Source: an uncultured Bacilli bacterium (GTDB taxonomy: Bacteria; Bacillota_I; Bacilli_A; RF39; UBA660). Taken from it: DNA of 64,000 bases. The DNA lies in the NCBI GenBank assembly GCA_944331895.1, contig CALVIX010000001.1, forward strand, positions 105,545-169,544. The letters run 5' to 3'. Shown here piece after piece: positions 30,641 through 38,621 of the stretch (its first letter is position 1; every line of letters begins with the position of its first letter). The notes under the pieces are model-generated. The model was given only the letters and a program-made list of their open reading frames with translations. It was not told where the DNA came from and did no database searches. The position numbers were made by a program, and so were the translations under genes.

Positions 30641-30658
30641 AAAGTGCATCCTGCACTT
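30641..30658 (-). terminator. Rho-independent terminator after the CHAP gene
   Basis: An 8-bp stem AAAGTGCA/TGCACTTT has loop TCC, then TTTTTTTC on the minus strand. Confidence 0.65.
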
Positions 30659-30665
30659 TCTTTTA

Positions 30666-34054: not shown

Positions 34055-37000
34055 TATCATCACCTGTTTCTTCTACGCTTAAAAAATCAATCCATTTACA
34101 AAGTATCGCTAGACCATCGTCGACAAAATATCCCATATCATTTTTATAATTCGTCGTCATCTCTCTCGTTACGTTTGATAAATGAAGTAATCCTTGATCA
34201 GAAATTCCTCGACCTATCCATACTCCTTGGTTAATGTTGAAAACACTTGTAAACCAAGGTTCAAATGCGTATTTCTTAATTTTAGATGCGGCGTCAGCAA
34301 CTACGATTGATATTTTTTCGTATGTTTTTAATTTTTGTACAAACGTAGAAAGAAGACTAACATCTTTAATTTTCGAAACCCATTTATCAAGATCATATAT
34401 GAAGATTACAATTTCAGGTTTTTGACTCATCTGATTCGCCTTATCTAATGAGATGATCATATCTTTTAATAATGCATTAAAATTTTGGTCGTAATATTGA
34501 TAGAAACATTTTCGATAAGAAGATAATGTCGTGGTTGCATCCCACAATATCGTGTGAACTCCTTTCATTTGTTCTAACACCATAGATAAACTACATATAA
34601 AATGCATCGTGTTTTCAGTTTTCAAAGAAGTCACAATGTTTCCAATATTACTTAAATAATCTACATAACATACTTGTAAATCATTTTTTATGATTCCGAT
34701 TGGAACTTTGTGTATATCGCTAATATAATCTTGCACATCTTCAAAAGTTACAACATTAGGAAGTGTTGGAATTCGTTTTGCATTTACTTGATTTTTGGAT
34801 CTTTGTTCTTCTATAAATTCAAGCAACTTCGTTCTTTCATTTTCTTCTTCTTTAAATACATGAGCAACTTGAAACTCGTGAATACCATCGATATCTAATA
34901 AACCGCGTCCTAGGATATCTCTTGGAGTCACACGTACTCGCTGGTTAAAAATAGAAGTATATTCATCGCTATCTTTCACGTGGAAAGCATACACATTTTT
35001 ACAATTTTGAGAAATTTTGCTTGGCAATGAATTGATCGCATTTGCTGTAAAGATAAATACAATTCCATAACGTTCTGAATCTCGAACCAATTCAGGTAAC
35101 AATTCATAAATATCGGCGTGATTTTCATAAATCGAATCAAAATTATTGATAATAACCACTTGGATTGGTAAGTCTTGGTTATCTGCTTCGATATAATTAC
35201 GATATTCTCCACCATAATCTCTTAAGATTCTTTTTCGGTTTTGAATTTCCTCACGGATCATTTTCAATAGATTATAATATTTTTCATCTTCTGATGCAAA
35301 AACAATCCCACCTACATGAGGACACGAAAGATAATTTCGCATCGATTCAGATCCATAATCCATCATATAAAATTGAATTTGGGAAGATGAATAATTTTTC
35401 ATGGTTGAATATAACAGCGTGTTTAATAACAATTCGCGTTCAATTCCATCTGTACCATAGACAATGGTATTTCCATCGGCTAAATAATCGTAAATTACAG
35501 CGCCCTGTTTTTGTTGCTCTGGGGCATCATATTCGCCGATCACTGCAGATACTGATCTTTGTTTCGTTATATCCACATGATATTTTTGAACAAGCTCATC
35601 TACTAAAATATATCCTGCAACATTGTCTAACCATAATTTTCTAGCATATTTATTCACTTGCTTTGCGACAGAAATAATCGTATTTAATATCGCAGTCAAT
35701 TGATCCCCTTCAGCATGTTTTACTTCGCCACTAGATACTTGCGCTTTTTTAATATCATTTCCGCTCTCATCGATAAAATCAACACTATGATCGATATGTT
35801 TGATGATTCTTTCAGAAGGATAATATTTATCTCCACACCAAGCAGACTGTCCTAACACAAACAATTCGTTGTAACCCACTTCTAAGTAGAACCTTCCTGT
35901 CTGTCTTAAATATGCGGCATCTGGAACTTTTAGCACTTCCTTACTATCAGATTCATCTTGAACTTTAAGACAAACTCTAAACTTAGTATTAGACCAGATT
36001 TGATCGTTAACTACTCCACTTGGCTTTTGCGTTGCCAAAATCAAATGTATTCCTAAACTACGTCCAATACGGGCAACACTAATTAAATTATCCATAAATT
36101 CTGGTTGTTGTACTTTTAATTCAGCAAACTCATCACATATGATAAAAAGATGTGGAATCGGCTCAGATAATTTCCCGTCTTTATAAAACCCTTGGTATTT
36201 ATAAATATCAATTGTACTCTCGCCAAGCTTTTCTCTTGCTTCGTTAAATATCTTTTGTCTTCTTTTGATCTCGCTATCGATACTTACTAAGGTACGATTC
36301 AACTCAGCTTTATCCAAGTTTGTAATCGTTCCTGCTAAGTGCGGCAAAACGATATTAGCTGTTTTATTTTCAAATGCAAAAGCAAGTCCACCACCTTTAT
36401 AGTCGATCAAAATGAAGGCGACATCATCAGGGCTATAGTTCATTGCCATCGACAATATATAAGTGATGATAAATTCTGATTTACCACTACCCGTCATTCC
36501 CGCAATCAACCCATGTGGTCCATGCGCTTTTTCATGTAGATCCAAATACATTAAGTTTCCTTGATTATCTACACCTATTTCTGCTTTTAAACTCGTCGTT
36601 GCATCGTTTGTCCCCCAACGATTTAACACATTCAACTGCTCTACTTTACCAACTTTTTCCATCTCTAAAAATGAAATAGAATCAGGAATTGCAGATATGC
36701 CATCTTCGAATTCAATTGGAATATTAGATAATTTCTTCACAACTTGCATCATATCAATTTGATATCGAATTTCTTCACTAAATGCAACTTGCTCTTGATC
36801 TTCATAAGAATTTTTTAATATCCCACAAGTATTTTCCCCAACAGAAATAAAATTATTACATTTACTTGGAAGTTTACTCAATCTATTCTCTAAAATAATT
36901 AAACTAAAACCTAAATTATCGTCTGTTTCAGTAATCTGTTTAATTAAATCATGATAACGAATTTGATCATAATCATCTATCACAAGTAAATAATAAGGTT

Positions 37001-38621
37001 TTACTGTAGCTTGGTTGTTCTCGTTTTTTTGTTGCACCCTATTATGTAACTCCATTTGTAAATAATCCGCAACATTTTTGGCACTGTCTAAATCATCTGC
37101 AAAAAAGCGGACAGTTTCGTCATTATTAAAACAATGTTTTAAATATCTTAAATAGTTCCAATAATGACTCCTTTCTTTATTTGTGAACAACACTATTTTA
37201 ACGTCTTCATAACTATAAAAAGTCATAAGTTGCAATAATATATTATGCATAAAATTTGTTACCTTATAATCAGTTCCCATAATAGCCGTTGTTTTGTTTT
37301 GATAAAAAGAATATCCAATAGGAACTCTCGTTAAATATTTGAAATCTTCTACCAACTGATCTGCTTGTTTTCTCAGTTCATCTTCGTCTACTGTAAATCC
37401 TTCTTCAGGATACTCTATTTTCACATCTAATTTTTCATTTCCGATTCCGAGTCTCGTTACCAAAAAATCGCTTTGATCGATACGTTTATCCCAAAAATTA
37501 ATTCCTTGATGTTGGATAATATTTAAGCATTCATCTACGGTAATTAAATTTTCAAATAATATTTCTTTTTGTAATTTCGCCTCTTGCACAAGCTCTTCTC
37601 GCTTTTCATTTAAATACTGCGTATACTTTTCTATCGTTTCCAATCTACGTTTTTTCTTCATTTTTCTATTATATGCCTGTGTCACCAATGGCCATACAAT
37701 CATAGAAATCAACATGGCACCACTTGTCACTAATTGTGGCCAAGAAGAAGCCCACGTAGCCTCGTGAGATGAAATCCGCAAAAGAGTATTTAAAAGCATC
37801 GTACCTGCCATTACTCCCATCGTTAACATCGGTCCTACAACTAACGCAATTGGCATTTCATCTTTGCTATCATCTCGTGGTGGAGCACTTAGTTTAATTT
37901 CTTTCGTATGAATCATTCTTCTAAGGCGTGGAGGCTTAGAAAAATAAGAATTTTTAGAATATAACTCTAAATTTTTAACCTCTATATTTTTAGGTTCCTC
38001 CTCTTGTGCAAAACGATACAACTGTAATTTTCCTAAAGTAAGATTAACAGCGATCTTTTGACTCAATCTACGGACAAAGACCATTCCATTCATAAAGATC
38101 ATCTCTAAGCCGTAAATATCGATGACGTCACCAGATTTGATGTTGTAAATATTATCTTTCATCGCCAAAGAATTGATATAAATATTTCCTTGCCCAGCTT
38201 TTTCTAACACTAATTGTTGATCTCGATAATAAATTTTAGCAAAAACTCCTTGTATATATGGTATCGCATATTGTATAGAACAATTTTGAGCATTGCCAAT
38301 CGTAATTTGAACATCCTTTTGAAATGTATAAAGTTCAAATCCAGGAAACACAATTTCTCGCGCATAGATAAAATAATTATAATTGCCTCTTCTCAATACG
38401 TAAAACTGATTTGGCATGAGTGGTAACATATCTATCGTTTGATTTTGATTTACAATTTTAACATCGGATGTACTGCAAAGCATCCACTTTCCATCTCTTG
38501 CTTCAACATGAATCAATTTACTCTCTTCTGTTTCGTTTGCATCAAAACTAAAACTACCAGAAATCTGCTGTGGTAGTAAAAACTCATATTTTTGATCTTG
38601 TAAATACAAAACTATCTTCAT
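34044..38621 (-). CDS. essC: Type VII secretion FtsK/SpoIIIE-family ATPase EssC/YukB
   Basis: It is 1525 aa from the ATG at 38621 (RBS GGGTGAGG). The roughly 200-aa N-terminus carries tandem forkhead-associated (FHA)-like domains. Two TMs follow (PIALVVGPMLTMGVMAGTMLL, WPQLVTSGAMLISMIVWPLV), then three P-loop ATPase domains. Domain D1 has the Walker A motif GMTGSGKSE. Confidence 0.9.
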   Translation of the reverse strand: MKIVLYLQDQKYEFLLPQQISGSFSFDANETEESKLIHVEARDGKWMLCSTSDVKIVNQNQTIDMLPLMPNQFYVLRRGNYNYFIYAREIVFPGFELYTFQKDVQITIGNAQNCSIQYAIPYIQGVFAKIYYRDQQLVLEKAGQGNIYINSLAMKDNIYNIKSGDVIDIYGLEMIFMNGMVFVRRLSQKIAVNLTLGKLQLYRFAQEEEPKNIEVKNLELYSKNSYFSKPPRLRRMIHTKEIKLSAPPRDDSKDEMPIALVVGPMLTMGVMAGTMLLNTLLRISSHEATWASSWPQLVTSGAMLISMIVWPLVTQAYNRKMKKKRRLETIEKYTQYLNEKREELVQEAKLQKEILFENLITVDECLNIIQHQGINFWDKRIDQSDFLVTRLGIGNEKLDVKIEYPEEGFTVDEDELRKQADQLVEDFKYLTRVPIGYSFYQNKTTAIMGTDYKVTNFMHNILLQLMTFYSYEDVKIVLFTNKERSHYWNYLRYLKHCFNNDETVRFFADDLDSAKNVADYLQMELHNRVQQKNENNQATVKPYYLLVIDDYDQIRYHDLIKQITETDDNLGFSLIILENRLSKLPSKCNNFISVGENTCGILKNSYEDQEQVAFSEEIRYQIDMMQVVKKLSNIPIEFEDGISAIPDSISFLEMEKVGKVEQLNVLNRWGTNDATTSLKAEIGVDNQGNLMYLDLHEKAHGPHGLIAGMTGSGKSEFIITYILSMAMNYSPDDVAFILIDYKGGGLAFAFENKTANIVLPHLAGTITNLDKAELNRTLVSIDSEIKRRQKIFNEAREKLGESTIDIYKYQGFYKDGKLSEPIPHLFIICDEFAELKVQQPEFMDNLISVARIGRSLGIHLILATQKPSGVVNDQIWSNTKFRVCLKVQDESDSKEVLKVPDAAYLRQTGRFYLEVGYNELFVLGQSAWCGDKYYPSERIIKHIDHSVDFIDESGNDIKKAQVSSGEVKHAEGDQLTAILNTIISVAKQVNKYARKLWLDNVAGYILVDELVQKYHVDITKQRSVSAVIGEYDAPEQQKQGAVIYDYLADGNTIVYGTDGIERELLLNTLLYSTMKNYSSSQIQFYMMDYGSESMRNYLSCPHVGGIVFASEDEKYYNLLKMIREEIQNRKRILRDYGGEYRNYIEADNQDLPIQVVIINNFDSIYENHADIYELLPELVRDSERYGIVFIFTANAINSLPSKISQNCKNVYAFHVKDSDEYTSIFNQRVRVTPRDILGRGLLDIDGIHEFQVAHVFKEEENERTKLLEFIEEQRSKNQVNAKRIPTLPNVVTFEDVQDYISDIHKVPIGIIKNDLQVCYVDYLSNIGNIVTSLKTENTMHFICSLSMVLEQMKGVHTILWDATTTLSSYRKCFYQYYDQNFNALLKDMIISLDKANQMSQKPEIVIFIYDLDKWVSKIKDVSLLSTFVQKLKTYEKISIVVADAASKIKKYAFEPWFTSVFNINQGVWIGRGISDQGLLHLSNVTREMTTNYKNDMGYFVDDGLAILCKWIDFLSVEETGDDNEE

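Follow-up and report, generated by a model that had tools for sequence, protein, structure and literature searches.

Type VII secretion systems (T7SS) differ from one another in every membrane component save EssC/EccC, and which of their parts form the channel and which serve as scaffold is still debated. EssA, EssB and EsaA are specific to the T7SSb (Ess/Yuk) type (Garrett, Higginson, Palmer 2024, PMC11217815), whereas the eight variants T7SSc-j have in common only TsxC, usually TsxB, and TsxA (PMC11217815), so that the lack of EssB or EsaA in a T7SS has precedents. Here we describe a T7SS-like locus in a stretch of 64,000 nucleotides (hereafter the window) of contig CALVIX010000001.1 from an uncultured RF39-type Bacilli bacterium, in which the gene of an EssC ATPase is followed by those of a ubiquitin-like (Ubl) protein and of four small soluble helical proteins, p214, p184, p97 and p83. 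From gene content, predicted folds, conservation and synteny we infer secretion and the roles of the helical proteins, and we consider it fairly probable that the locus encodes a functional, lineage-specific T7SS subtype with a conserved core of six genes (EssC, Ubl, p214, p184, p97 and p83) and without EssA, EssB and EsaA. The initial annotation of the window had regarded the lack of these three proteins as unusual, more so than is warranted in view of the eight variants already described without them (PMC11217815).

The locus resembles T7SSb in an EssC that passes the T7SSb equivalog and has a weakly supported FHA-like N-terminus, in a ubiquitin-fold gene right after essC, and in the DUF4176 chaperones, the polymorphic toxins with their immunity genes and the CHAP hydrolase (compare EssH) found at the locus. 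It differs from T7SSb in that EssA, EssB/YukC and EsaA/YueB are missing from the window and from the surroundings of essC in 29 species, in having no above-threshold WXG100 protein of EsxA type and no LXG domain on 20 cargo candidates, and in its four lineage-specific helical proteins. Its plan is that of T7SSc-j, namely a TsxC ATPase, a ubiquitin-like TsxB and small helical proteins, here of putative TsxA type, to which subtype-specific extras are added. T7SSg is likewise small, comprising two WXG100 proteins, TsgB, TsgC and TsgL (PMC11217815), but its TsgC is without FHA domain, its TsgL is a DUF5050 beta-propeller and Tad pilus genes are adjacent to it. The other sets differ from the locus by membrane kinases in T7SSc, d, e and j, by EspG-like chaperones in T7SSh and i and, in T7SSf, by an AAA+ ATPase together with a PPM phosphatase and a DUF6382-FHA protein.

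The window contains no component of the kinase, phosphatase, vWA, DUF6382-FHA, AAA+ or Ig-repeat kind by which T7SSc, d, e, f, h, i and j are defined, and the Pfam matches of its genes include neither the membrane Ser/Thr kinase TsxD, the PPM phosphatase TsxF, the DUF6382-FHA protein TsxJ and the AAA+ ATPase TsfV nor DUF5050 and Tad families. The best reading of these gene sets is that the locus represents a T7SS subtype outside the published T7SSa-j sets and undescribed in the literature searched. The published survey is built on RefSeq, with accession lists that are all WP_, and the accessible part of its supplements contains no mention of DUF4176, uncultured, CAG, Tenericutes, Acholeplasma or Erysipelotrich (PMC11217815). 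Full-text literature searches for T7SS in RF39 or Tenericutes returned nothing relevant.

Composition of the locus and its proteins

The region has about 33% GC and all of its genes lie on the minus strand. The operon between two terminator-like hairpins consists of overlapping or tightly packed genes, as follows.

38709-39479: spo0A, the gene ahead of the locus
38695..38710, minus strand: terminator-like hairpin that follows spo0A and bounds the locus upstream (from the scan: 6-bp stem, then a T-run)
34044..38621, minus strand: essC (EssC/TsxC), FtsK-family membrane T7SS ATPase of 1525 amino acids (aa)
33782..34054, minus strand: Ubl gene (putative TsxB/YukD/EsaB analogue), 90 aa, overlapping the end of essC by 11 nt
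33052..33696, minus strand: p214, after a gap of 85 nt from the Ubl gene
32469..33023, minus strand: p184
32174..32467, minus strand: p97 (100-aa open reading frame, ORF), its start overlapping the p184 stop
31926..32177, minus strand: p83, overlapping p97 by 4 nt
30666..31913, minus strand: CHAP415, 415 aa, 12 nt after p83
30641..30659, reported by the scan on the plus strand: terminator-like hairpin that follows the CHAP gene and bounds the operon downstream

Both limits had been placed at these hairpins before, and both were recovered, the first by the scan and the second by the scan together with inspection by eye, since its stem is nearly palindromic and can be read on the minus strand with a T-run. 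Because the gaps within the six-gene block do not exceed 85 nt, there is no space inside it for an uncalled gene such as that of EssA.

The essC ORF spans 34044-38702 (1552 aa), and in six independent metagenome assemblies the gene callers chose M28 as its start, which gives the 1525-aa protein. The ribosome-binding site AAGGGTGAGG lies just upstream of this start, and ahead of it an extended -10-like TGgTATGAT was noticed by eye at about 38655-38647, where the promoter scan made no call. That EssC is full-length was confirmed by NCBIfam equivalog TIGR03928 (T7_EssCb_Firm), which it matches with 948.4 bits (cut-off 778.4) over model positions 4-1287 of 1296; PF01580 is matched with E 3.5e-40. 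The closest solved relative is YukB of B. subtilis from the T7SSb cryo-EM structure 9qks_G (E 1.2e-116), and since the phmmer alignment to it is restricted to EssC residues 199-934, the N-terminal region is too divergent for this method. The order of domains is FHA-like N-terminus, two hydrophobic segments and D0-D3.

Several finer points of the domain assignment had to be modified. Instead of tandem FHA-like domains, one FHA-like region was recognised through weak, sub-threshold matches (Pfam FHA, E 0.0024 and 18.7 bits against a cut-off of 20.7; a profile of the first 235 residues finds FHA domains exclusively, those of Dun1 and Ki-67, among Protein Data Bank (PDB) entries, E 0.05-0.24), whereas the first repeat was matched neither in the Pfam nor in the N-terminal profile searches. 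Inspection of the alignment by eye shows a nearly invariant Gly-Asn in place of the Gly-Arg of the phosphothreonine pocket and no SxxH; the FHA domains of T7SSb EssC are likewise without this pocket (PMC11217815). Two hydrophobic segments, at about 258-284 and 296-318, agree by eye with the two transmembrane (TM) segments annotated before, whereas the first alone passes the threshold (KD>1.6) of the crude hydropathy windows from which all TM calls in this work were made. As for the three P-loop domains, the D2/D3 region is present, judging by the coverage of TIGR03928 and by the match of 4lya/5fv0 to residues 1027-1272 (D2), but no canonical P-loop was seen in it and the sole canonical Walker A belongs to D1. 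This motif, GMTGSGKS at residues 708-715, is invariant in 25 orthologues at all positions but one (88%), and D1 is 85-95% identical among them.

The 90-aa Ubl protein had been called YukD/EsaB-like, which holds for its position and predicted fold and not for its sequence: Pfam and NCBIfam give no YukD model match (Pfam gives a weak one to UBL_UBAC1 only), the family profile finds no match among PDB sequences, and YukD annotation is absent from all 57 database homologues. The AlphaFold (AF2) model, built with 27 homologues, has a pLDDT of 89.4 and a beta-grasp fold in the order beta-beta-alpha-beta...beta. Foldseek places the ubiquitin-like domain of EccD5 from the ESX-5 complex first (7np7_D2, E 5.5e-5; also 7npt, 7b9f and 7b7j), with ubiquitin and NEDD8 ranked after it. 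The C-terminus, ...VFYQPIM, is without Gly-Gly, and the gene adjoins essC in 28 of the 29 species loci that hold EssC. On account of its predicted fold and its position, the gene qualifies as a putative TsxB/EsaB/YukD analogue; YukD of B. subtilis binds YukB (EssC) extensively (PMC12637312).

The remainder of the operon had been described as small soluble helical proteins and a CHAP amidase, in agreement with our hydropathy windows, which detected no TM-like or signal-like hydrophobic segment in p214, p184, p97, p83 or CHAP415, and with the PF05257 match of the latter. The most conserved protein of the locus is p214, with 66% mean column identity across the clade. Its model (pLDDT 89.1) is composed of helices 8-41, 48-90, 124-153 and 162-199, which form two hairpins and a four-helix bundle within a single chain, and has a 33-residue crossover loop with short strands pairing with residues 44-45; because of this modelled pairing, the end of helix 4 would adjoin the first turn. 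The first turn reads W-A-C (W45) in 44 of 45 orthologues and the second [C/S]-G-F-x (CGFxGG in p214, which carries an ENIGGVRGID loop as well). The Tyr that closes helix 4 (Y199) is universal and is followed by x-x-x-Glu in 27 of the 45 orthologues, and then by a conserved ...V-S-x-A-F tail. In EsxB/CFP-10, YxxxD/E and the C-terminal arm are packed against the WxG turn of EsxA, and EspB shows the same arrangement in fused form. The W-A-C turn and Y-x-x-x-E tail of p214 recall EsxA-EsxB and EspB of the mycobacterial T7SSa, and by this analogy p214 is proposed as a candidate core substrate of the EsxA/EsxB type.

Homologues of p214 fall into 167 clusters, with 54-98% identity among the matches listed, and are nearly all unnamed; an exhaustive profile search against 1.84 billion representatives gave 422 clusters at E<=1e-3 and 141 at E<=1e-30 (clusters at 50% identity). 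Some orthologues have weak Pfam matches to EspC, WXG100 or Flagellin_C; those to Flagellin_C, present in 14 of 31 orthologues with a best E of 5.4e-8, may be due to the compositional similarity of helical proteins or to something more. An internal duplication in p214 found no support from hhalign. The p214-type domain also stands at the N-terminus of longer metagenomic proteins (P0270, P0274, P0299, P0263 and P0311, 296-426 aa), whose C-terminal extensions are of low complexity or conserved, that of P0299 ending in a glycine-zipper-like segment. This suggests that the domain can carry cargo, as secretion domains of polymorphic toxins do.

The p184 family alignment has an invariant W39-x-D41, and WXG100 is the Pfam family that its orthologues match most often (8 of 33, best E 9.3e-5), while three match YwqH-like. 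A WXG100-type protein, where the initial annotation had recognised no EsxA/YukE gene, is thus probably present in divergent form. One p184 orthologue (locus L030) aligns to positions 3-82 of 86 of the WXG100 model with E 0.0034, below threshold, and no protein of the window, ten having been scanned directly, reaches the thresholds of PF06013 or TIGR03930-type WXG100 models. We therefore read p184, from its sequence, as a divergent WXG100 domain, sub-threshold for curated models, with a helical C-terminal extension of about 100 residues that bears a DLSFC motif. Profiles of the p214, p184 and p83 families gave nothing significant against PDB sequences, and that of p97 matched HP0062 of H. pylori (2gts/3fx7) with E 0.002, everything else having E of at least 0.25. 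HP0062 has been described as ESAT-6-like. In hhalign comparisons among the four helical families and against four approximate WXG100 sequences, the probability did not exceed 38.6%, the value reached by p83 against these sequences as the best and yet weak result of the four families. WXG100 homology of p214, p97 and p83 is thus unproven; p97 and p83 are probably small hairpin partners, acting as general adaptors or co-substrates.

Conservation of the block and the search for canonical components

A profile scan for p214 over one genome per GTDB species found relatives in 43 species-representative genomes, metagenome-assembled and about 1.3 Mb in size, of uncultured gut Bacilli/'Tenericutes' of RF39 type. 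Their labels read uncultured Tenericutes, Mycoplasmatota, Acholeplasmataceae or Bacilli, Clostridium sp. CAG:417, Candidatus Faecimonas gallistercoris and Candidatus Onthousia faecavium, and one of them is a closed chromosome (OZ006994.1, 1,256,474 bp). Candidatus Faecimonas corresponds to GTDB genus CAG-877 of family CAG-611, order RF39 (PMC8035907).

Simple ORF calling and clustering (longest ORFs, BLASTP, single linkage) was applied to 51 loci of relatives, denoted L with a number, and to the window, 52 loci in total. The p214 cluster was represented in all 52, p184 in 46 (next to p214 in nearly all), p97 in 44, p83 in 40, EssC and Ubl in 38 each, a cluster of large variable proteins designated C6 in 25, DUF4176 in 18 and CHAP in 11. 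The description of the locus as EssC and YukD only thus falls short, since four more soluble proteins (40-52 of the 52 loci) are as conserved with EssC as Ubl is. Of the 43 species genomes, 33 have p214-p184-p97-p83 as an unbroken run, 29 have EssC within the part of the locus that was retrieved, and 10 have all six genes side by side, most other species having a variable cassette of 3-5 kb (toxin/immunity/DUF4176) between the Ubl gene and p214. Synteny of EssC with Ubl and of p214 with p184, p97 and p83, raised earlier as a point for comparison, is accordingly conserved across the 43 species genomes and often split by a cassette. The block borders on ribosomal-protein and SSB genes in L036 and L007. 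Retention of the locus under clear purifying selection in dozens of species is seen in genomes of only about 1.3 Mb.

Pfam and NCBIfam scans were run directly on ten locus proteins and complemented by precomputed Pfam matches for called genes covering nearly the whole window. No match to EssB/YukC, EssA or EsaA was obtained in this material, which confirms that the three proteins are not recognisable in the 64 kb, and no WXG100 match rose above threshold in the same scans. EssB/YukC was not matched in the flanks of the relatives' loci either, and no conserved large polytopic protein of EsaA/YueB type lies near essC in the 29 species loci. Among 58 TM-containing neighbour proteins of the EssC loci, taken one per cluster, the 25 families among the matches listed (of 70) are all housekeeping ones, including YfhO, BacA, FtsW/RodA, penicillin-binding proteins, ABC transporters, LemA and PrsW. 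In the subclade of the closed genome (L054, a 34-kb metagenome contig), the membrane proteins encoded ahead of essC were identified as glycosyltransferases and an ABC-2 permease. The cluster table and the gene maps of the relatives' loci contain no second conserved membrane protein, EssC being the only one in the conserved core.

Two further membrane proteins, of 518/530 aa and 452 aa, are encoded on the same strand at 26692-29784. Both have a single TM segment and an extensive extracytoplasmic portion. They are confined to the closest relatives (L001-L003 and L009), which places them outside the conserved system; as core parts they were rejected on this phylogenetic distribution.

Cargo genes within and around the block

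CHAP415 matches PF05257 with 59.1 bits over residues 285-371 and has no hydrophobic N-terminus or signal peptide. It is restricted to 11 loci of the closest subclade, where it directly follows p83 wherever the junction was retrieved, and its residues 144-216 resemble a C6 effector-cluster protein of L007 (E 2.4e-8). In the L039/L040/L043 subclade, LysM+NAGPA or LysM+M91 proteins occupy the position of CHAP415 after p83, so that signal-less wall-active enzymes recur at this site. EssH, a CHAP cell-wall hydrolase required for the T7SSb of S. aureus (PMC13059805), is likewise made of an N-terminal domain and a C-terminal CHAP domain and encoded by a T7SS-linked gene, but CHAP415 is without Sec signal peptide, lies at the operon end and occurs in one subclade only. 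By its sequence, CHAP415 is a candidate peptidoglycan amidase/peptidase that may be T7SS cargo or an EssH-like wall-opening enzyme. Directly downstream of the CHAP gene of L054 (12563-19799; p184 58% identical) we observed genes for Amidase_3, an HtrA-like protease, Amidase_3+LysM, Hydrolase_2 (PF07486, which we take to be SleB-like) and a glucosaminidase, as well as Abi_2.

The initial annotation had overlooked two DUF4176 genes and a second effector-immunity module at 45.1-47.5 kb:

29901..30455, minus strand: DUF4176 gene (Ltc-type chaperone family), 184-aa ORF with a C-terminal extension (PF13780, 55.3 bits, model positions 18-70 of 74)
45106..45432, minus strand: second DUF4176 gene, 108 aa, complete domain (PF13780, 98 bits, model positions 1-72 of 74)
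45432..46142, minus strand: c10 homologue, putative p481 immunity protein of about 219-236 aa (219 aa in a near-identical contig)
46105..47550, minus strand: p481, orphan effector with no Pfam match and no TM segment or signal peptide

Proteins of the DUF4176 family are toxin-specific chaperones of T7SSb (PMC12478183). The gene at 29901-30455 has its own promoter-like site (30581-30552, 11 of 12 positions and an upstream TG) and is missing the first 17 model positions, while an ATG in the region upstream (30455-30540) is in another frame that runs into a stop; the gene looks frameshifted or N-terminally truncated. Because the arrangement recurs in three independent assemblies, this disruption is not a one-off assembly error.

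Over residues of about 195-480, p481 shares 26-33% identity (E down to 1e-30) with the C-terminal portions of C6 toxins that are 346-1543 aa long, and the c10 homologue is 30-41% identical to genes that come after p481-type toxin domains in L023, L031, L033, L035, L037 and L038; the two are a probable cognate toxin-immunity pair. The orphan p481/c10/DUF4176 module (45106-47550) lies upstream of essC at a distance of 6.4 kb, flanked by a PRK-family gene and gap, and since it has homologues in T7SS cassettes, the T7SS-related region reaches from about 47550 down to 29901. At about position 10000 of L045 and L049, a lone p214 homologue (42-44% identical) is flanked by pgk and gap, EssC being absent within 10 kb; the matching site in the window is the one that holds the orphan module.

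The C6 proteins of the relatives (346-1784 aa) carry differing toxin domains, namely ADP-ribosyltransferase+HD in L021, HD in L026 and a transglutaminase-like domain in L028, and several have no recognisable domain. Toxin-immunity pairs co-vary across relatives, and cassettes that diversify yet keep matching immunity genes imply that the T7SS is in use. If so, abundant uncultured gut bacteria of RF39 type would carry interbacterial weaponry with ADP-ribosyltransferase, HD, amidase and other toxins, of which no report was found in the literature searched.

No LXG domain was detected in 20 candidate cargo proteins (CHAP415, p481 and 18 of relatives) at cut-offs of E 0.1 for CHAP415 and 0.01/0.001 for the rest. 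CHAP415 (MSEKIKTSL..., 31890-31913) and p481 (MSVSKIKAN..., 47527-47550) start in the same manner as many toxins in the relatives' cassettes (MSDVKKID..., MSGIDKIK...), and these have in common a 'vE.vD' motif 30-50 residues after the 'MS..KIK'-like start. A hidden Markov model built from C6 toxin N-termini found other C6 members and not CHAP415, p481 or the LysM proteins, and a loose N-terminal regular expression, designed on the same data, matched 23 of 53 cargo-cluster proteins against 37 of 449 others (Fisher p 4.5e-10). We put forward a common N-terminal export signal on the cargo as a hypothesis.

In eight relatives the variable cassette is closed by the gene of a soluble Ser/Thr kinase of about 250 aa (L021:9159-9905, Pkinase 76.7 bits; homologues in L022, L026, L031, L033, L035, L038 and L039), immediately upstream of p214 in seven of them; tblastn was negative for it in the window. 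The kinase could act together with the FHA-like domain of EssC, in which the residues of the phosphothreonine pocket are not conserved.

Proposed mechanism and competing explanations

In the lineage-specific system that we favour, EssC hexamers would be channel and motor, as in T7SSa and T7SSb structures, and the Ubl protein would bind EssC and aid its assembly, as YukD does with YukB (PMC12637312). A single-chain stand-in for the EsxA/EsxB pair, p214 would, by itself or together with p184, p97 and p83, engage an EssC ATPase domain through its C-terminal arm, activate EssC, be co-secreted and license the export of cargo, by analogy with EsxA/EsxB (PMC11217815, PMC13355648). The DUF4176 proteins would stabilise particular toxins, in line with the function of their family (PMC12478183). 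Variable cargo, that is toxins with immunity proteins, DUF4176 proteins and cell-wall hydrolases, would occupy one of two sites, that separating the Ubl gene from p214 or that following p83, the cargo of the window being the signal-less CHAP amidase at the operon end and the orphan toxin-immunity-chaperone module. CHAP415 itself may be an exported antibacterial amidase or an EssH-like wall-opener, which the T7SS itself would export, given that CHAP415 has no Sec signal.

A bolder version of this proposal, in which EssC and one Ubl protein are the entire type VII translocon, further membrane subunits being dispensed with, p214 and its three helical partners supply the remainder for recognising and exporting toxins and wall hydrolases, and genome-reduced gut bacteria thus hold the smallest natural T7SS, we regard as possible though doubtful. 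If true, EssC as the only conserved membrane protein would make this a natural minimal system for reconstitution and cryo-EM. The locus may show how few parts a T7SS needs, since helical proteins take the place of the membrane partners in a layout that recurs in dozens of species. The analysis also defines new families that are unannotated in profile databases: p214 (422 clusters at 50% identity), p184, p97 and p83.

Several points weigh against the proposed subtype. Secretion itself is deduced rather than observed, and we know of no experimental precedent for a T7SS with a single membrane component. EssC has kept an FHA-like domain for which no partner was identified, and YxxxE is found in just 27 of the 45 p214 orthologues. 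Beyond the window and the relatives' flanks, which the searches covered, the genome could still hold a canonical esxA or the genes essA, essB and esaA. Finally, as a soluble kinase is present in the cassette of eight relatives, further accessory parts may exist.

It is unlikely, all the same, that the window holds merely part of an ordinary T7SSb whose essA, essB, esaA and esxA are encoded elsewhere in the genome. Such an arrangement would agree with an EssC that passes the T7SSb equivalog and has YukB as its best solved relative, with the retained FHA-like N-terminus, a region that contacts EssB in T7SSb (PMC11217815), with DUF4176 genes, typical of T7SSb loci (PMC12478183), and with searches that covered only part of the genome. 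However, none of these genes was found within 10 kb of essC in the 29 species loci, within the limits of family scans, or in the 64-kb window, and four other proteins are conserved near essC instead. In described loci the T7SSb core genes cluster with essC. The small genomes (about 1.26 Mb in the closed relative) and the 20 candidate cargo proteins without LXG domain argue in the same direction.

The four helical proteins might alternatively be no core components but cargo-specific targeting factors for CHAP415, similar to Lap or EsxB/C/D proteins, an explanation to which we give little credence. Their genes lie directly upstream of CHAP415 in the same operon, three p184 orthologues have YwqH-like Pfam matches, and three small partners escort the nuclease EsaD in S. 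aureus (PMC10653861). Nevertheless, they are conserved in 40-52 loci whatever the cargo, the CHAP gene being present in only 11, and elsewhere toxins of unrelated families replace CHAP or flank the block on its opposite side.

Still less plausible is that the 518/530-aa and 452-aa single-pass proteins substitute for EssB and EsaA, a role for which the initial annotation had considered them, and that the machine is not minimal. In favour of it are their location immediately downstream and on the same strand, their single TM segments with large extracytoplasmic parts and, in L009, a 518-aa homologue that comes directly after the CHAP gene; but both are absent from the flanks of the next subclade (EssC 78-79% identical) and of most other species, and neither matches a T7SS family. 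Weak matches to the 452-aa protein (23-24%) were seen in L017 and L044, where they follow RNase J at a distance from the T7SS genes, and a terminator, a promoter-like site and a DUF4176 gene stand between the operon and the two genes.

A decaying T7SSb remnant that has lost its membrane partners and secretion, suggested by the missing canonical partners and by the truncated or frameshifted N-terminus of one DUF4176 gene, is hardly credible given a 1525-aa ORF intact in at least 25 orthologues with a Walker A invariant at all positions but one (88%) and D1 85-95% identical, a p214 that is 66% identical on average across the clade, and toxin cassettes whose diversification with matching immunity genes implies use.

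The position of the locus downstream of spo0A, pointed out earlier, is true of the window, whereas this adjacency is kept only in the nearest relatives; a link of spo0A to the T7SS was rejected, as the adjacency is not conserved among the relatives' loci. Along with spo0A (38709-39479), the window contains a gene for a small acid-soluble spore protein (PF00269, 51859-52071). These spore genes, which place sporulation genes in an RF39-type lineage, are of note in an organism whose relatives bear the deposited names 'uncultured Tenericutes' or 'Acholeplasmataceae' and have about 1.26 Mb of genome.

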